Assembly (NCBI GenBank): GCA_046727575.1
Contig: JBKPCV010000054.1
Span: 21 to 64,020 of the forward strand
Length of the DNA stretch: 64,000 bases
Reading direction: 5' to 3'
From: Actinomycetota bacterium
Lineage (GTDB): Bacteria > Actinomycetota > Acidimicrobiia > IMCC26256 > DASPTH01
Of the stretch, positions 1,135 to 11,629 are shown piece by piece (position 1 is the first letter of the stretch; each line of letters starts with the position of its first letter). The position numbers and the translations under genes are program-made. The notes beneath the pieces are model-generated. The model saw only the letters and a list, made by a program, of their open reading frames with translations. It was not told the DNA's origin and ran no database searches.

Positions 1135-2343
1135 TCAGGCCCGTAGGCGCGCCCAGTTGCGGCGGCCGAGTTGGAGGAGCTTGCCGTCGGCCTCGGCGCC
1201 GTCGACCTCGAGGTCGGGATCGGTCACCTCTTCACCGCCGAGGCGAACACCGCCTTGCACGATCTTGCGCCGGCCCTCCTTGTTCGACGACACCGCGTCG
1301 GGGAACGCGACCCGCAGCAACGTGGCGACGCGGATCGGAGAGGACGGCACCTGCACCTCCGGGACGTCGGATGGCGCCTCGTGGGCGACGAATACGCGGT
1401 CGAACTCAGCCTCCGCCGCGCGCCCGGCGCCCACGCCGTGATAGAGGTCGACAACGGTGCGCGCAAGCAGGCGTTTGGCGTCGACCGGTCGCATGTCGCC
1501 GCGCTCCAGGGCGTGCTCGACCTCCCGGGCCCGCTCCAGCGGCCAGGCGGTGGCGAGCTCGAAGTACTGAGGCATCAGGTGATCGGGAAGCGACATCAAC
1601 TTGCCGAACTGCTCGCCGGCAGGCTCGGCGATGCCCACGTAGTTGCCGAGCGACTTGGACATCTTTTGCACCCCGTCGAGCCCGACGAGCAACGGCATCG
1701 TGAGCACCACTTGCGGCTCGAGCCCTTCCTGCTCCATGAGTGGCCGCGCCATCAAGAAGTTCCAGAGCTGGTCACTGCCGCCGAGCTCGATGTCGGCCTC
1801 GACCATCACCGAGTCCCACCCCTGGAGCAGCGGATACAGGAACTCCATCACCGAGATGGCCTCACCGCTTGCGTAGCGCTTGGCGAAGTCGTCGCGCTCG
1901 AGCATGCGCGCGACCGTCGTGCGCGACGTGAGGCGCAACACGTCCTCGATGTCCATCGTGGCAAGCCATTCCGAGTTGCGACGAATCTCCAACGGTTCGG
2001 GCAGCAGGATCTGGTGGAGCTGGTCGACGTAGGTGGCGGCGTACTCCTCGACCTGTTCCTTCGACAAGCGCGGGCGCGTGACCGAACGTCCGGAGGGGTC
2101 GCCGATCTGCGCGGTGTAGTCGCCGAGGATGAGCACCGCGGCGTGGCCCCGTTCCTGGAACTGCCGGAGCTTGCGCAACACGACGGCGAAGCCCAAGTGG
2201 ATATCGGACGCGGTGGGGTCGATGCCGAGCTTCACTCGCAGCGGCCGTTGATTCGCCAGCTTCGTCTGCAGCTCGTCGAGGCTGATGAGCTTGTCGTACG
2301 CCTCGTCGAGCACGAAGTCGACCGTCGCCGGCCCGCCGCCCAC
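1135..2343 (-). CDS. tyrS: tyrosine--tRNA ligase
   Basis: Class I motifs DIHLG and KMSKSLGN. The ORF 5' extension is Arg/Pro-rich and overlaps mpg, so the in-frame GTG at 2343 is chosen (start uncertain). Confidence 0.9.
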   Translation of the reverse strand: MGGGPATVDFVLDEAYDKLISLDELQTKLANQRPLRVKLGIDPTASDIHLGFAVVLRKLRQFQERGHAAVLILGDYTAQIGDPSGRSVTRPRLSKEQVEEYAATYVDQLHQILLPEPLEIRRNSEWLATMDIEDVLRLTSRTTVARMLERDDFAKRYASGEAISVMEFLYPLLQGWDSVMVEADIELGGSDQLWNFLMARPLMEQEGLEPQVVLTMPLLVGLDGVQKMSKSLGNYVGIAEPAGEQFGKLMSLPDHLMPQYFELATAWPLERAREVEHALERGDMRPVDAKRLLARTVVDLYHGVGAGRAAEAEFDRVFVAHEAPSDVPEVQVPSSPIRVATLLRVAFPDAVSSNKEGRRKIVQGGVRLGGEEVTDPDLEVDGAEADGKLLQLGRRNWARLRA

Positions 2344-2373
2344 CTCTACGCTCCACGCGCCGGCGCGGGGCCG

Positions 2374-2427
2374 CTCGGACCACGGCTCGTTGCGGCGCAG
2401 GCTACCTTCGCCGCGGCCACTCGCCTC
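2374..2427. repeat. GC-rich hairpin repeat, copy in the tyrS 5' region / mpg 3' region
   Basis: ctcggaccacggctcgttGCGGCGCAGGctaCCTTCGCCGCggccactcgcctc; ~85% identical to copies at 5761 and 23283. Confidence 0.7.
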
Positions 2428-2440
2428 ATGCCGGGGGACG

Positions 2441-4436: not shown

Positions 4437-5704
4437 CCGGCCTCCGGGCCGCCCTGCTCGCGCGCCCAGGTCTCCACGGAGAGGCCCCAGAGGCGGACGA
4501 ACCCTTCGGAGTCCTGGTGGCGGAACGTGTCCGACGCGTCATAGGTCGCCAGGTCGTAGCGGTAGAGGCCGTGCTCGGCGCGGCGGCCGGCAACGGTGCA
4601 GCTCCCCGGTTCGAGCCGCAGTCGCACATCGCCGGTGACGTGTTGTTGTGACGCCGTTATGAACGCGTCGAGCGCCTCGCGCAGCGGCGAGAACCACAGG
4701 CCGTCGTAGACGAGCTCCGCGTAACGCGGCTCCAGCCGGGACTTCTCGCGCATGAGGTCGCGCTCGAGGGTGATCGATTCGAGATCCGCGTGTGCGAGCA
4801 TCAGCGCGAGCGCGCCGGGACATTCGTAGTTCTCACGGCTCTTGATGCCGACGCGACGGTTCTCCACCATGTCGACGCGCCCCCAGCCGTACGGTCCGAC
4901 ACGAGCGGTCGTCTCGAGAACGAGCTCGTCGAGCGGCATCGCTTCACCATCGAGCGCGACCGGGACACCCTCCTCGAAGCCGACGACGAGCTCCCACGGC
5001 TCGAGCGCGCGCCCGTCGGGGTTAGTGGTGAGCGTGTAGATCTCGACGGGCGGTGCGGCCCACGGGTCCTCCAGCACGCCGCACTCGATGGCGCGGCCCC
5101 ATAGGTTCTCGTCGATCGAGAAGGGATTGTCCTTGCGCACCTTGATCGGGATGTTGTGCCGCGCCGCGTAGTCGATCGAGTCCTCACGAGTGAAGCCCCA
5201 CACACGGACCGGCGCGAGCACGTCGAGGTCGGGCGCCAGCGCGCGCACCGACACCTCGAAGCGCACCTGGTCGTTTCCCTTCCCGGTGCAACCATGGGCA
5301 ACGGCGTCGGCATTGAACGCGCGCGCCGCGCGGACGAGGTGACGCGCGATCACCGGACGCGACAACGCCGACACGAGCGGATACTTGGCCTCGTAGAGCG
5401 CGTTGGCACGAATCACGGGCGCGACGTAGCCGTCGGCGAATTCGCGCTTCGCGTCGACAACGATCGCTTCCACCGCGCCGGCGGCGAGCGCGCGGTCGCG
5501 GATCGTGTCCCAGTGACCGTCCTGTTGATGGTCGCGCTCGCTGCGGGCCGGGAAACCCGGCCCGCTCACGCTCGGCCACTCCTGCGGCTGCCCGACGTCG
5601 ACGGACAGCGCGATGACCTCGGCGCCCCACTCCTCCTGGATCCACTTCACCGCCACTGAGGTGTCGAGGCCACCCGAATATGCGAGCACCACACGCTTCG
5701 CCAT
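4433..5704 (-). CDS. argG: argininosuccinate synthase (carries a ~21-aa in-frame insertion derived from a repeat element)
   Basis: MAKRVVLAYSGGLDTSV ATP-binding N-terminus. ATG at residue 23 of ORF 4433..5770. Confidence 0.95.
   Translation of the reverse strand: MAKRVVLAYSGGLDTSVAVKWIQEEWGAEVIALSVDVGQPQEWPSVSGPGFPARSERDHQQDGHWDTIRDRALAAGAVEAIVVDAKREFADGYVAPVIRANALYEAKYPLVSALSRPVIARHLVRAARAFNADAVAHGCTGKGNDQVRFEVSVRALAPDLDVLAPVRVWGFTREDSIDYAARHNIPIKVRKDNPFSIDENLWGRAIECGVLEDPWAAPPVEIYTLTTNPDGRALEPWELVVGFEEGVPVALDGEAMPLDELVLETTARVGPYGWGRVDMVENRRVGIKSRENYECPGALALMLAHADLESITLERDLMREKSRLEPRYAELVYDGLWFSPLREALDAFITASQQHVTGDVRLRLEPGSCTVAGRRAEHGLYRYDLATYDASDTFRHQDSEGFVRLWGLSVETWAREQGGPEAG
5531..5575. 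repeat. GC-rich hairpin repeat copy embedded in frame in argG
   Basis: gtcgcgctcgctGCGGGCCGGGaaaCCCGGCCCGCtcacgctcgg, a 10-bp perfect stem. On the minus strand it encodes SVSGPGFPARSER. Confidence 0.75.
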
Positions 5705-5760
5705 GCGTTCTTCCCTTACCCTCCTACCCTCCGCTCTCGGCGGCTTTTGCCGCCGGGCTG

Positions 5761-5814
5761 CTCGGGCCACGCCTCGCTGCGGCGCAGGGTACCTGCGCCG
5801 CGAGACGCTCGGCT
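5761..5814. repeat. GC-rich hairpin repeat directly after the argR stop
   Basis: ctcgggccacgcctcgctGCGGCGCAGGgtaCCTGCGCCGCgagacgctcggctc, a 10-bp perfect stem. It abuts the argR stop at 5815. Confidence 0.8.
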
Positions 5815-6282
5815 CTAGAGACCGGCCAGACCAGCAAGCTCACCAGCGACTTGAGAACCGCGGGCGTTCTCCGAGCACACGACGAGGATGGTGTCGTCGC
5901 CGGCGACGGTACCGAGGACGTCGGGAAGACCGGCCCGGTCGATGGCGGACGCGACGACGTGCGCGGAGCCGGGCGGAGTGCGCAGCACAACGAGGTTGGT
6001 GCTGTGGGCGACCTCCACCACGAAGTCGCCCATCACCCGACGGAGATGGTCGTCGGGCGCGCTGCCCTCCTTGGCGTGCTCGGGGATCGCATACGCCGTG
6101 GCGCCGCCGGGGATGCGCACCTTGACCGCGCCGAGGTCCTCGAGGTCGCGGCTCACGGTCGCCTGCGTGGCGACGACGCCGTCGGATGCGAGGAGCTCGA
6201 CGAGCTGCACCTGGCTCGAGATCGCCTGCTCCTCGAGCAGGCGTGCGATGCGGTGCTGTCGTTGCGGCTTGCCGAGCGTCAC
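5815..6282 (-). CDS. argR: arginine repressor
   Basis: [50 protein letters not shown]. The GTG start forms a GTGA overlap with the argF stop. Confidence 0.9.
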
Positions 6283-7187: not shown

Positions 7188-8383
7188 CCGGAGCGCTCCG
7201 CCAGCACCCGTTCGAGGATCGCCACCGCCTCGTCGATCTCCTCGTCGGTGACCAGCAGCGGCGGCTCGAACCGCAACGCGGTCGGCGTGACCGCGTTCAC
7301 CACCAGGCCCGCGTGGAGGCACGCGTTCGCGACGGCGCCCGATTCGAGCCCCGGCGCGAGCTCGGCGGCGACGAGGAGCCCGGCCCCCCGCACGTCCGCG
7401 ACACCGGGGACGGCGAGGAGCGCCTTCATGAGCCGTTCCCCGGCGCGCCGCGCGAGCGCGGGGACGTCCTCGCTCTGCATGACCTCGAGGACCGCGAGCG
7501 CCGCGCGCGCGGCGAGCGGCTGCCCGCCGAAAGTCGTCGCGTGGTCCCCGGGCTTGAACGCAGCGGCGACGTCGCGGCGCGCCCAGCACGCGCCGATCGG
7601 CACGCCGTTGCCGAGGGCCTTGGCCATCGTCACGATGTCGGGTCGGACCCCGTCGGCATGCTGGAACGCGAACCACCTCCCGGTGCGACCGAGCCCGGCC
7701 TGCACCTCGTCGACGATCATCAGCGCCTCGCGTTCGTCGCACAACGCGCGCACCGCGGCGAGGTATCCGTCGGGCGCGGGGATCACACCGCCTTCACCCT
7801 GGATCGCCTCGAGCAGCACCGCGGTGACGCGACCGTCCATTGCGGCGGCGAGCGAGTCGACGTCGCCGAAGGTCACTTGTCGGAAGCCCGCGGGCAACGG
7901 CTGGAACACTTCCTGCTTCTGCGGCTGCCCGGTGGCTGCGAGCGTCGTGAGCGTGCGCCCGTGAAAGGAGCCGTACGCGGAGACAACGTGGTAGCGCTCG
8001 GGGCCACCGTTGGCCTGGCCATGACGCCGGGCGAGCTTGATCGCGCACTCGTTGGCCTCAGCGCCCGAGTTGGCGAAGAACACACGGCCGCCGCCGCCGA
8101 GCAGGTGGTCGAGCTGTTGCGCAACTCGGGGCTGCACGTCGTTGTAGTAGAGGTTCGACACGTGGAGGAGCGTGCGCGCCTGCTCGGCAATCGCGTCGGC
8201 CACTGCGGGATGTGCGTGCCCGAGCGAGGTCACCGCGAGCCCGCCGAGGAAGTCGAGGTACTCCCGACCCGCGCTGTCCCACAGGCGCGTTCCTTCACCC
8301 CGTACGAACGCGACCGGGAGCCGGCCGTACGTCTGCATGACGTAGTCGGCGTCGAGCGTCTGGATGTCCTCGAAGGGCGTCAT
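7184..8383 (-). CDS. argD: acetylornithine aminotransferase
   Basis: MTPFEDIQTLDADYVMQTYGRLPVAFVRGEGTRLWD, class III aminotransferase. ATGA overlaps at both ends. Confidence 0.95.
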   Translation of the reverse strand: MTPFEDIQTLDADYVMQTYGRLPVAFVRGEGTRLWDSAGREYLDFLGGLAVTSLGHAHPAVADAIAEQARTLLHVSNLYYNDVQPRVAQQLDHLLGGGGRVFFANSGAEANECAIKLARRHGQANGGPERYHVVSAYGSFHGRTLTTLAATGQPQKQEVFQPLPAGFRQVTFGDVDSLAAAMDGRVTAVLLEAIQGEGGVIPAPDGYLAAVRALCDEREALMIVDEVQAGLGRTGRWFAFQHADGVRPDIVTMAKALGNGVPIGACWARRDVAAAFKPGDHATTFGGQPLAARAALAVLEVMQSEDVPALARRAGERLMKALLAVPGVADVRGAGLLVAAELAPGLESGAVANACLHAGLVVNAVTPTALRFEPPLLVTDEEIDEAVAILERVLAERSG

Positions 8384-9261
8384 GAGGACTCCCACCTTGG
8401 TGGCTCCGCTTCGATCATCGTCCCGATGCCCTCGCGCGTGAAGAACTCGAGCAGCAGCGCGTGCGGGACGCGCCCGTCGAGAATGTGCGCGCGGCGTACG
8501 CCGTTGCGCAACGCGTCGGCGCACGACCGGACCTTCGGGATCATCCCCTCCGAGAGCTTTCCGTCGGCCTCGAGTCGCTCGAGCCCATGCGCGTCGATCC
8601 GGGAGATCAACGTTGCCTCGTCGGGATAGTCGGCGTACAGGCCGGCGACGTCCGTGAGGTACACGAGCTTCTCGGCGTCGACCGCACGGGCGATCGCGCC
8701 GGCTGCAGTGTCGGCATTGATGTTGTAGGCCTGCCCGGCGTCGTCCACGCCGATCGTGGCGATCACCGGGATGAGCTCCTCGTTGACGAGGCGTTGCACG
8801 ATCGAGGGGTCGACGCTGGCAACATCGCCGACGAACCCGAGACGCTGGTCGCGCATCGAAACCGTGATCAGGCCGGCGTCTTCGCCGGACAACCCGACCG
8901 CGTAGGAGCCGTGGCGGTTCACGCATGCGACGACCTCGCGGTTCACCTTGCCGACGAGCGCCATGCGGACGATGTCAACGGTCTCGGCGTCCGTCACGCG
9001 CAGGCCGTCGACGAATTGCGGCTTCTTGCCGAGCCGCTGCATCAGGTCGCTGATCTGCGGGCCGCCGCCGTGCACGATCACCGGGTTCATTCCTACGTGT
9101 CGCATCAGCACGACGTCCTGGGCGAACAGATCCGCGAGCGTCGGGTCGTCCATCGCGTGCCCGCCGTACTTCACCACGACCGTCTTGCCGGCGAACTCCT
9201 GGATGTACGGAAGAGCCTCGGCGAGGATCGCCGCCTTCTCCAGCACTCTTGCGTCGCTCAC
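8380..9261 (-). CDS. argB: acetylglutamate kinase
   Basis: LPYIQEFAGKTVVVKYGGHAM..VIVHGGGPQI; GTG start. Confidence 0.95.
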   Translation of the reverse strand: MSDARVLEKAAILAEALPYIQEFAGKTVVVKYGGHAMDDPTLADLFAQDVVLMRHVGMNPVIVHGGGPQISDLMQRLGKKPQFVDGLRVTDAETVDIVRMALVGKVNREVVACVNRHGSYAVGLSGEDAGLITVSMRDQRLGFVGDVASVDPSIVQRLVNEELIPVIATIGVDDAGQAYNINADTAAGAIARAVDAEKLVYLTDVAGLYADYPDEATLISRIDAHGLERLEADGKLSEGMIPKVRSCADALRNGVRRAHILDGRVPHALLLEFFTREGIGTMIEAEPPRWESS

Positions 9262-9292
9262 GACGTCCTCATTTTTCGTCCAGCACCATGGC

Positions 9293-9366
9293 GTCGCTCG
9301 CTGCGCCCGGGGATACCCCGACCGCAGTCGCTCGCTCCGCGTGCTCGCTCGACTTCGCTCGCTCCC
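9293..9366. repeat. GC-rich hairpin repeat plus CGCTCGCT-rich tail inserted between argJ and argB
   Basis: gtcgctcgctgcgCCCGGGGataCCCCGaccgcagtcgctcgctcc, followed by gtgctcgctcgacttcgctcgctccc. Confidence 0.8.
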
Positions 9367-10563
9367 TCACGAGGTCCTCATGTTCTCGTCCACATACGCG
9401 TTCGTGAGATCCGTGAACGTCACCGTCGCGGACCCAGTGCCGGCGTGCAGGTCGGCCTCGATCAGGATCTCGCGGTCCTCCATCAGCGCCGCGAGCGCGG
9501 CGTCGTCGTGCGCGGCGGCGACGCCGTCCCGGCAGACCGGGATGCCCTGGTAGGAGATGTCGGCCCGCTCGGGGTCGAACCGGGCGCCGCTCGCGCCCAG
9601 CTCGGACAGCACCCGACCCCAGTACGGGTCGTTCCCGTAGAGGGAGCACTGCACGAGCTGGCTCCCGGCGACGGCGCGCGCTGCGGTACGGGCCTCGGCC
9701 GCCGAACGTGCACCGTGCACCACGATGGTGGCGAGCTTCGTCGCGCCCTCGGCGTCCGCCGCCATCTGCCGGGCGAGGTCGGAACACGCGGCCGCGAGCG
9801 CATCGCCGAACGCTTCGTAGCCGCGGCCGGTGCGGGCAATCGGCTCGTTTCCGAGTGCTCCATTCGCGAGCACCAGCACGGTGTCGTTGGTGCTCGTGCA
9901 GTCGTCGACGATCAGGCTGTTGAACGAATCGGTCACTGCGCGCGTGAGCATGGCGTGGAGAGCGGTGGCGTCGACCGCGGCGTCCGTCGTGAGGACCGCG
10001 AGCATCGTGGCCATCGCGGGAGACAGCATGGCCGCGCCCTTAGCCATCCCACCGACAGTGGCGGTCACGCCGCGTGCGATCTCGACGCGCTGCACCGTCT
10101 CCTTGCGCACTGTATCGGTGGTGAGAATGGCGTCGGCAGCCGCTTGCCCATGCCCGCTCGAGTCGAGGGCAGCGACCAGCTTCGGGATGCCGGCCTTCAC
10201 CGGCCCCATCGGCATCGGGATGCCGATCAGACCGGTCGAGCAGACGAGCACGTCGCGCGTGGCGCAGCCCAGTCCTTCCGCAGTGAGCTCTGCCATTCGC
10301 AGCGCGTCACGCCGGCCGGCTTCGCCGGTCGCCGCATTCGCGTTGCCCGAGTTGAGCACCACCGCGGCGGCGCGCCCGTCGTGGAGGTGACGGCGGCTGA
10401 CCTGGACGGGTGCGGCCGCGACCAGATTGGACGTGAAGACACCGGCGGCGCTGACCGCCGCGTGGTCGGCCGTGGCGACGATCGCGAGGTCGGGCGCGCC
10501 CGACGGTTTGATGCCGCACGCGAGCCCGCCGGCAACGAAGCCCGCGGCCGCGGTCACGCTCAC
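9367..10563 (-). CDS. argJ: bifunctional glutamate N-acetyltransferase / amino-acid acetyltransferase
   Basis: MSVTAAAGFVAGGLACGIKPSGAPDLAIV..., 398 aa. Confidence 0.95.
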   Translation of the reverse strand: MSVTAAAGFVAGGLACGIKPSGAPDLAIVATADHAAVSAAGVFTSNLVAAAPVQVSRRHLHDGRAAAVVLNSGNANAATGEAGRRDALRMAELTAEGLGCATRDVLVCSTGLIGIPMPMGPVKAGIPKLVAALDSSGHGQAAADAILTTDTVRKETVQRVEIARGVTATVGGMAKGAAMLSPAMATMLAVLTTDAAVDATALHAMLTRAVTDSFNSLIVDDCTSTNDTVLVLANGALGNEPIARTGRGYEAFGDALAAACSDLARQMAADAEGATKLATIVVHGARSAAEARTAARAVAGSQLVQCSLYGNDPYWGRVLSELGASGARFDPERADISYQGIPVCRDGVAAAHDDAALAALMEDREILIEADLHAGTGSATVTFTDLTNAYVDENMRTS

Positions 10564-10591
10564 GCTTTCCCGCCCTCGGTGCCAGCTGACC

Positions 10592-11629
10592 TCACGGCAT
10601 GAGTCCCGTGACGGGCAGCGCGGTCGTCTCGGGCAGACCGAGGAGGAGGTTCGCGCACTGGATCGCCTGACCCGACGCGCCCTTCACGAGGTTGTCGAGC
10701 GCGCCCAACGCGAGCACGGTATTGGTCCGCGCGTCGTACCGCACCGTGACGTGCTCGGCGTTCGACCCGAGTGTGGCCTTCGTCGCAGGCGAGCCGTCGG
10801 TGACGACGACGAACGGTTCCCGGTCGTAGAACGTCCGGTAACGGCCGAGCAGCTCCTCGGTGTCGAGCTCGTCGACGGCGGGGCGCGCGTAACACGTCGC
10901 GAGGATCCCGCGCGTCATCGGCACCAGGTGCGGAGTGAACAGCACCTGCACCGTTTCCCCGGCGACGTGCGCGAGCGCCATCTCCATCTCGGCCGTGTGA
11001 CGGTGCGTCAGCAATCCGTAAGCGGCGACGTTCTCGTTGACCTCTGAGAACAAGCTCGTCACCTTCGCGCCCCGGCCCGCACCCGACACGCCCGACGCTG
11101 CATCGACCACGATCCCGCCACACTCGACGAGACCATCGCGTAGGAGCGGTGCCAGCGCGAGCGCCGCCGCCGTCGGGTAGCACCCGGGTGCGGCGACGTG
11201 GCGCGCCGCGGCCACCTCGGACCGGTACAGCTCCGGCAGCCCGTACGCGAAGCGCTCGAGCAGGTCGGGGGCGGAGTGGGCCTCGCGGTACCACTGCTCG
11301 TAGTCGGCCTGCGGGAGACGGAAGTCGGCGCCGAGGTCGACCACGTGCCCCACCGCGTCGACGAGGTCGGCCGCCATCGCCTGGGACTGGCCGTGCGGCA
11401 GCGCGAGGAAGACGACGTCGAGACCGGCGAGCTCGTCGGTCGCGAGCGGCGCGTAGACGAGCCGCGGGTAGGCCGCGGCGAGGGACGGAAACTGCTCGGC
11501 GACCGCGCTCCCCACGTTCGACTCCGCGGTGACGCTGACCACCTCGATGTCGGGATGGTCGGCGAGGAGGCGGAGCAGCTCCGCGCCGGTGTAGCCCGAT
11601 CCACCGACGACCGCGGCTCGATACGCCAT
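10592..11629 (-). CDS. argC: N-acetyl-gamma-glutamyl-phosphate reductase
   Basis: MAYRAAVVGGSGYTGAELLRLL..HPD..; active-site context PGCYPTA. The ATG is residue 50 of ORF 10592..11776. Confidence 0.95.
   Translation of the reverse strand: MAYRAAVVGGSGYTGAELLRLLADHPDIEVVSVTAESNVGSAVAEQFPSLAAAYPRLVYAPLATDELAGLDVVFLALPHGQSQAMAADLVDAVGHVVDLGADFRLPQADYEQWYREAHSAPDLLERFAYGLPELYRSEVAAARHVAAPGCYPTAAALALAPLLRDGLVECGGIVVDAASGVSGAGRGAKVTSLFSEVNENVAAYGLLTHRHTAEMEMALAHVAGETVQVLFTPHLVPMTRGILATCYARPAVDELDTEELLGRYRTFYDREPFVVVTDGSPATKATLGSNAEHVTVRYDARTNTVLALGALDNLVKGASGQAIQCANLLLGLPETTALPVTGLMP

Follow-up and report, generated by a model that had tools for sequence, protein, structure and literature searches.

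The junction of argJ and argB considered here lies in a window of 64,000 nt (the whole stretch of DNA that was analysed) on contig JBKPCV010000054.1 of an uncultured soil member of the Acidimicrobiia. The genome, referred to as G000, is a 3.45-Mb assembly with a GC-content of 68%. The arg genes of the window are encoded on the minus strand; argJ, the 3' end of which reads TAT GTG GAC GAG AAC ATG AGG ACC TCG TGA, is separated from argB by a spacer of 105 nt that contains the hairpin GCGGTCGGGGTATCCCCGGGCGC amid GAGCGAGCG motifs. The hairpin belongs to a family of short repeats, and copies of this family are found at gene junctions in the arg and rib operons of the window. Both genes are intact: argJ retains its C-terminus and argB its Shine–Dalgarno sequence (SD) and GTG start, as claimed in a preliminary description of this DNA. 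Coordinates of the features are given in Table 1.

The gene junction itself is present twice. According to the preliminary description the last 27 nt of argJ recur near the start of argB with two mismatches and one gap, and alignment of the copy at the end of argJ (A, 9392-9366) with that upstream of argB (A', TGGACGA-AAAATGAGGACGTCGTGAG, 9282-9257) gives precisely this count, together with 24 identities. The local alignment score is 19–21, against a shuffle mean of 6–9 (sd 1.4–1.8); it was reached by no shuffle in 5000, 3000 or 1000 trials, and by three of 20000 random 60-mers of the same genome. The similarity between the two sequences thus exceeds chance. The argB GTG is overlapped by A' within a GTGA, and A' also has a GAGGA SD (9266-9270), both as previously described; this SD lies 4 nt upstream of the GTG.

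Self-comparison of positions 9220-9420 reveals a second direct repeat (T, 9299-9279, and T', 9259-9239), in which 18 of 21 positions are identical at a constant offset of 40; none of 5000 shuffles was as good. The score of T' is 15 against the local T, while against any other of the approximately 139 family tails the next best score is 12 and the median 8. The region therefore has the order A (27 nt), repeat body (69 nt), T, A', T' and finally TGGAGAAGGCG, which encodes the conserved EKA motif of argB. Once the 69-nt body is removed, copy 1 of the junction aligns with copy 2 at 35 of 41 positions. Because of this alignment the repeat body appears to lie within copy 1, directly after GTGAG, and not between the two copies of a ~27-bp duplication, which is where the preliminary description had placed it. 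The duplicated unit, judged from the same comparison, is 41 nt long and takes in sequence from each gene, namely the final 27 nt of argJ and the first ~14 nt (14–18 nt) of argB. Copy 2 resembles this unit with the repeat body missing.

We also considered A' as an ordinary tail of the repeat family, and rejected this candidate; GACGAAAAATGAGGACGTCGTGAG has no other match in the genome at up to four mismatches.

Table 1. Features of the argJ/argB junction, and sites at which a repeat-bearing junction was compared with an empty one
Feature	Position	Strand	Description
argJ CDS (coding sequence)	9367..10563	-	open reading frame list; NCBIfam ArgJ equivalog, 424 bits; C-terminus ..YVDENMRTS, TGA 9367-9369
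argB CDS	8380..9261	-	open reading frame list; NCBIfam argB equivalog, 271 bits; GTG start 9259-9261
Junction copy 1, argJ side (A)	9366..9392	-	TGGACGAGAACATGAGGACCTCGTGAG; self-comparison; holds the ancestral SD-like GAGGA and GTGA overlap
Hairpin repeat body	9297..9365	-	69 nt (23 codons); between GAGCGA-type direct repeats; left arm GTCGAGCGAGCACGCGGAGCGA
Hairpin core	9303..9325	.	GCGGTCGGGGTATCCCCGGGCGC; sole match in the window; centroid fold
Junction copy 1, argB side (T)	9279..9299	-	GAGCGACGCCATGGTGCTGGA; also matches the family tail
Junction copy 2, argJ-derived (A')	9257..9282	-	TGGACGAAAAATGAGGACGTCGTGAG; 24/27 columns as in A, 1-nt deletion
Junction copy 2, argB side (T')	9239..9259	-	GAGCGACGCAAGAGTGCTGGA; 18/21 as in T; first argB codons VSDARVLE
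Relay open reading frame	9269..9370	-	33 codons, peptide VRERAKSSEHAERATAVGVSPGAASDAMVLDEK; GTG overlaps argJ stop; runs through the repeat
Filled/empty site, argC/argJ			empty CCGTGAGCGTC in G003; CCATGAG[...]ACATGAGC in G001
Filled/empty site, argB/argD			ATGA in G000 and G001; GCATGAGCGG...GACATGACC in G003
Filled/empty site, junction upstream of argG	5705-5816		TAG on both sides of the element
Filled/empty site	2290-2437		element directly after ATG start; relay frame ends TAG 2 nt before new GTG

It might be supposed that the match is a coincidence of GC-rich sequence, or that the assembly is a chimera of two strain alleles, given that the metagenome bin is fragmented into 241 contigs and that repeat-bearing and repeat-less alleles both exist among its relatives. 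We discount this almost entirely. In addition to the shuffle and 60-mer comparisons above, substitutions and an indel distinguish A' and T' from A and T, so that there is no repeated k-mer from which a cycle in the assembly graph could arise; A', if it were a separate allele, would truncate the strongly conserved ..DENM(G/R)TS end of ArgJ; and both genes are intact with their frames as expected.

The GTG that overlaps the argJ stop opens a reading frame that, as the preliminary description recognised, runs through the repeat element. This open reading frame (ORF), which we term the relay ORF, is 33 codons long, and its TGA (9271-9269) overlaps the argB SD, 7 nt before the argB GTG. The length of the repeat body, 69 nt, is a multiple of three (3×23). 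From GTGA to GTGA the distance is now 109 nt; before A' lost 1 nt by deletion it would have been 110 nt (2 mod 3), making the spacer a perfect GTGA...GTGA relay. The deletion accounts for the shift of the relay stop to its present place 7 nt before the argB GTG.

A scan of positions 8000-11000 against Rfam at E<=1 produced no match. Neither a terminator nor a promoter was found on the transcribed strand of the argJ/argB spacer, and no intrinsic terminator on the minus strand within 8900-9800; the hairpin is followed by AGCGAGCGAC. On the plus strand, antisense to the operon, a single terminator-like site is present at 9251-9276 (GCGTCGCTCACGACGT then CCTCATTTTT; one found, 0.2 expected). Created when A' became A-rich, it is probably fortuitous.

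The junction was then compared among relatives from uncultured Acidimicrobiia (denoted by G- and L-numbers). From 30 relatives, 80 species genomes and 80 metagenome contigs we obtained 164 distinct argJ/argB junctions. A start codon overlaps the argJ stop in 162 of these (NTGA in 143, TGATG in 18 and a TAATG-type overlap in one), and in 140 of the 162 the overlapping start is in frame with argB. Because overlap is this widespread, the ancestral junction was an overlapping stop and start, which agrees with the GTGA-type ancestor envisaged in the preliminary description. Perfect relay ORFs are present at 16 of the 164 junctions.

To go by its distribution, the element at this locus is old and orthologous among relatives. 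Within G000 its left arm, GTCGAGCGAGCACGCGGAGCGA, is found almost nowhere but at argJ/argB; in G005, a member of another genus, it has one hit genome-wide, with no mismatches and again at argJ/argB, and it is found at argJ/argB in G002 also. The locus-specific element is present in G002, G003, G005 and L123, and in the genus-level clade of the ArgJ tree, ((G000,G002),(G001,G003,L123)), the element occupies argJ/argB in four of the five members. Across the orthologous copies 95% of cells in the hairpin are paired, five of ten pairs have changed on both sides (that is, are compensatory), and none of 500 shuffles was as good. The core hairpin is the only robust RNA structure in the spacer.

The state of the element differs from relative to relative. 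In G003, L123, L018, L059, L129 and L139 it has the same orientation as in G000, and the frame that opens at the overlapping start continues through it into argB, with no second junction; the relay peptide of G000, VRERAKSSEHAERATAVGVSPGAASDAMVLDEK, aligns with the N-terminal extension of ArgB in L123, VSERAQSSEHAQRTAVGGVSPPTVSEAMVWEKAAI. Within this in-frame group there are three independent tandem amplifications, whose periods (48, 57 and 60 nt) are each divisible by three. In G002 (L002) and G005 (L007), which represent two genera, the orthologous element is inverted in place, and each genome has a second SD and NTGA together with a perfect relay ORF, the length of which is 33 or 36 codons. 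The second junction of G002 and G005 was not more similar to their own argJ ends than shuffled sequence, and we claim no shared duplication. A metagenome scan for nearer relatives returned a best match of 80% identity, which is too distant to time the duplication.

The hairpin core of G002 is a different cassette, GCGGTGCAGGTACCTTGCACCGC, set between otherwise identical flanks, which suggests exchange of cassettes between copies. At the argJ/argB junction of L180 there is an unrelated palindrome of ~68 nt (AACCGGTGAC...GTCACCGGTT), the flanks of which are a junction duplication of 13–15 nt (GCGGACCTCGTGACC / GCGGCTCGTGACC); its relay ORF is perfect and comprises 28 codons.

To define the repeat family, a hidden Markov model built from seed copies was run over the G000 contigs with nhmmer. 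This gave 139 hits in 95–97 arrays, many of them tandem. The inverted repeat of the family is internal, and its ends are direct GAGCGAGCG repeats. The context of each array was judged by a test for NTGA motifs and ORFs that is free of gene calls: an NTGA at the left edge and an ORF spanning the array were found for 26 of 97 arrays, and 15 of the 26 spanning ORFs end in another NTGA overlap. Several are clean relay ORFs of 29–31 codons (for example on contigs C103, C46, C206, C140, C9 and C233). The family as a whole therefore behaves like the interspersed repetitive units of mycobacteria (MIRUs), which are discussed below.

We also asked how the flanks of other copies compare with those at argJ/argB. 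Flank-to-flank alignment of 95 arrays gave a median score of 9 and a 90th percentile of 13; shifted controls were equal (median 9), and the argJ/argB locus was the top outlier. In four comparisons of filled with empty sites in same-genus genomes (Table 1) the duplications were of 3–5 nt only. Long flank duplication as a trait of the family was accordingly rejected, the flanks of the arrays being no more similar than the shifted controls.

These data bear directly on the model offered in the preliminary description, according to which a repeat of ~82 nt (with its tail) was inserted once into an intact GTGA junction and itself generated the ~27-nt flanking target duplication. A single event of insertion and duplication is not supported: the element is separable from the duplication, orthologous copies in G003, L123 and others having no detectable one, and in G002 and G005 A' is not statistically detectable. 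The model draws on the fact that A and A' bracket the repeat, and that the duplication ends in GTGAG, which is the xTGAG duplicated at other filled sites of the family. Moreover, variable flank duplications around palindromes do exist (13–15 nt in L180, and CATGAGTG on both sides at C184), whereas long ones are not a trait of this family, the four filled/empty sites showing 3–5 nt. The two-junction state is also seen in G002 and G005, and one deletion between direct repeats would be enough to turn such a state into either a fusion or an empty site. The model does not account for the T/T' repeat at offset 40, and A and A' differ in just 3 of 27 columns even though the element predates the split of two genera. 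On balance, one-step insertion fits T/T', the survey of the family and the relatives less well than the history that we favour, and we regard it as rather unlikely.

Junctions can also be duplicated with no element at all. Tandem duplications free of any element are found at argJ/argB in L011 (20/21 identical, offset 32 nt), L186 (15/17, offset 17 nt) and L199 (14/16, offset 23 nt), all in lineages other than that of G000, and each gives a perfect relay ORF. This raises the possibility that duplication came first: an element-free GTGA junction would have undergone a 41-nt tandem duplication, and the body would have entered copy 1 later, at GTGAG^CGA, by homologous exchange with a repeat-bearing allele or by gene conversion. 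The offsets of 17, 23 and 32 nt are all 2 mod 3, as is 41; it takes a repeat-less allele for A and T' to adjoin; T' has AAG, as does the repeat-less G001, where repeat-bearing alleles have ATG (a weak indication, resting on one or two positions); and allelic exchange would explain why the signature is specific to this locus. Such a history nevertheless requires a repeat-less ancestor in a clade of which four of five members carry the element, and also a later allelic replacement confined to copy 1, while the duplicated element-free state is seen in no relative of the clade. We consider it unlikely.

The history to which we incline, with moderate confidence, is the reverse: an old, resident repeat came first and the junction was duplicated later, giving argB a repeat-free SD and GTG and turning a protein extension into the relay ORF. 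Directly shown are the duplication itself, the frames, orthology of the element and overlap at the ancestral junction; the order of events, the mode of recombination and translation of the relay ORF we infer. In the predecessor, a start overlapping the argJ stop would have been read through the repeat in frame into argB, so as to produce an N-terminal extension of ~25–45 residues, a state that persists in relatives. Duplication would then have set a repeat-free copy of the junction downstream, perhaps by slippage or by an unequal exchange at TGGA(C)GA, a microhomology common to argJ (ATGTGGACGAGAAC) and argB (GTGCTGGAGAAGG). The body missing from copy 2 may have been skipped during this event or lost later between GAGCGA direct repeats; alternatively, the partner may have been a repeat-less allele. 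Exact loss of the body between GAGCGA repeats predicts GTGAG joined directly to CGACGC, as copy 2 reads. Copy 1 still terminates argJ, and copy 2 now supplies the SD and GTG of argB; with a GAGGA-N4-GTG of its own, argB would once more have a short N-terminus, the former extension being cut off as a relay ORF of 33 codons. Having finished argJ, ribosomes would reinitiate at the overlapping GUG, proceed through the hairpin and terminate on the argB SD, 7 nt before its GUG; argB would thereby remain translationally coupled, yet be made without a repeat-encoded tail.

Several points weigh against this history. T matches other family tails (scores of 16, 16 and 15) as well as it matches T' (15), and because of this the extent of the duplication beyond 27 nt holds by a modest margin. 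A long-range RNA fold of the spacer that would sequester the argB start was not significant against shuffles (minimum free energy z = -1.6). The two-junction state could itself be old, because G002 and G005 combine an inverted element with a second SD and NTGA and a relay ORF that is perfect; deletion between A and A' or between T and T' could then have given rise to the in-frame fusions and the empty sites. If the predecessor carried the repeat, copy 2 must have arisen in two steps, or in a cell that harboured two alleles. Finally, G000 is a metagenome bin of 82.5% completeness.

A broader possibility is that junction duplication is a general and recurrent means by which operons absorb selfish palindromic repeats and uncouple overlapped genes, and that the Acidimicrobiia family is 'translationally transparent' (always in frame or within a relay), spreading and being lost through homology-guided template switching or recombination at GAGCGA direct repeats, and not through a transposase. 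The proposal is doubtful. If true, such spread and loss would explain the variable flank duplications, in-place inversion, swaps of hairpin cassettes and scar alleles.

Among known systems the closest parallel is with MIRUs (Supply et al. 1997), characterised in PMC12548453 and PMC3184786 as short (40–100 bp), GC-rich and often tandem repeats in actinobacterial operons. In the account of these two sources the start of the MIRU ORF overlaps the upstream stop, its stop overlaps the downstream start, and coupling is barely disturbed. MIRUs insert at start codons, with an internal ORF coupled at -4 spacing (PMC12548453), and filled sites have tetranucleotide direct repeats (PMC3184786). The Acidimicrobiia family is likewise short and dispersed in operons, and at least 15 of its arrays in G000 have NTGA at both ends of the ORF. 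The MIRU-like relay proposed for argJ/argB in the preliminary description thus holds for the family as a whole and for the start overlap at this junction; the stop of the relay ORF in G000 falls 7 nt before the argB GTG and does not overlap it, whereas in G002 and G005 the relay ORF overlaps at both ends. There are further differences. The host belongs to the Acidimicrobiia and there is no Rfam match, on which grounds, and not by direct sequence comparison to the Mycobacterium units, we take its sequence to be unrelated and set the family apart; it is built around a conserved hairpin; the 4-nt repeats of MIRU sites contrast with a duplication of 27–41 nt at argJ/argB in G000 and of 3–5 nt at the other filled sites; and the orthologous element in relatives is read in frame within ArgB.

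A second parallel is with Rickettsia palindromic elements (RPEs; Ogata et al. 2000, as cited in PMC3184786), reported there as palindromic repeats tolerated in frame within coding sequence. The in-frame N-terminal extension of ArgB in six relatives resembles this arrangement, as does an in-frame copy in argG in the window; the likeness fails for the argJ/argB copy of G000 itself, which is cut off by a stop. RPEs are 105–146 bp long, occur in Rickettsia and lack any tie to stop/start junctions. We know of no junction duplication or relay ORF described for RPEs. Our literature searches found no description of a MIRU- or RPE-like repeat family in Acidimicrobiia.

As short, GC-rich, hairpin-forming and high-copy intergenic repeats, the family also resembles repetitive extragenic palindromic (REP) sequences and bacterial interspersed mosaic elements (BIMEs) with their REP-associated tyrosine transposases (RAYTs), and miniature inverted-repeat transposable elements (MITEs). 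It differs from the REP/RAYT system (REPINs) in that no Y1 transposase (PF01797) was found in G000, although positive controls matched; at a completeness of 82.5% its absence is unproven. It differs from MITEs in having neither terminal inverted repeats nor a target duplication of fixed length (3–5 and 27–41 nt), its copies being flanked by GAGCGAGCG direct repeats.

Overlapping stops and starts are a known basis of translational coupling, and a short ORF may 'deliver' ribosomes to a downstream gene (reviewed in PMC12548453). The ancestral argJ/argB junction is a classical -4 overlap (A/GTGA), and the duplicated copy retains the geometry from SD to start. What differs at argJ/argB in G000 is that the coupling unit itself has been duplicated, with a selfish repeat embedded in the bridging ORF; the result is a variation on a type of repeat that is already known. 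The locus illustrates, at the level of sequence, the way in which a selfish repeat can be tolerated at a compact, translationally coupled operon junction, and two routes by which this may come about: the repeat may be accommodated as an in-frame extension of the protein, or the whole coupling unit (SD, overlap and first codons) may be duplicated, leaving the repeat in a bridging mini-ORF. The argJ/argB junction has been duplicated independently in several lineages, and the same resident repeat is in frame, part of a relay, inverted, amplified or lost among relatives. Together these genomes provide a natural series for testing what limits translational coupling sets to the evolution of operons and to the dispersal of repeats.

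Further copies and subtypes of the family deserve brief description. Within argG an in-frame copy is present at window positions 5514-5582 (..VDVGQPQEWPSVSGPGFPARSERDHQQDGHWDT..); this insert of ~60 nt is absent from the same place in G001, G002 and G003. Tandem arrays of the subtype starting with TAGGAGCGA have periods of 55–59 nt, which are not multiples of three (C46, C49, C55, C85, C151, C162 and others), and each unit has first a stop triplet and then a GGAG motif. At argB/argD in G003 (L116) a two-hairpin subtype of ~95 nt has been inserted into the ATGA overlap; CATGA flanks it on either side, and its relay ORF is perfect.

The neighbouring arg junctions were said in the preliminary description to share the coupled arrangement supposed for the ancestor of argJ/argB. 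This is so for argB/argD, where the genes overlap as ATGA; it is not so for argC/argJ (10563-10594, minus strand), which is no plain GTGA overlap and instead has its own relay ORF of 11 codons, GTGAGGTCAGCTGGCACCGAGGGCGGGAAAGCGTGA, extending from the argC stop to the argJ GTG. This ORF appears to be what is left of the 3' part of a longer repeat subtype. The same site is occupied by a full element in G001, carries a scar of 10 nt in G002 and is empty, CCGTGAGCGTC, in G003.

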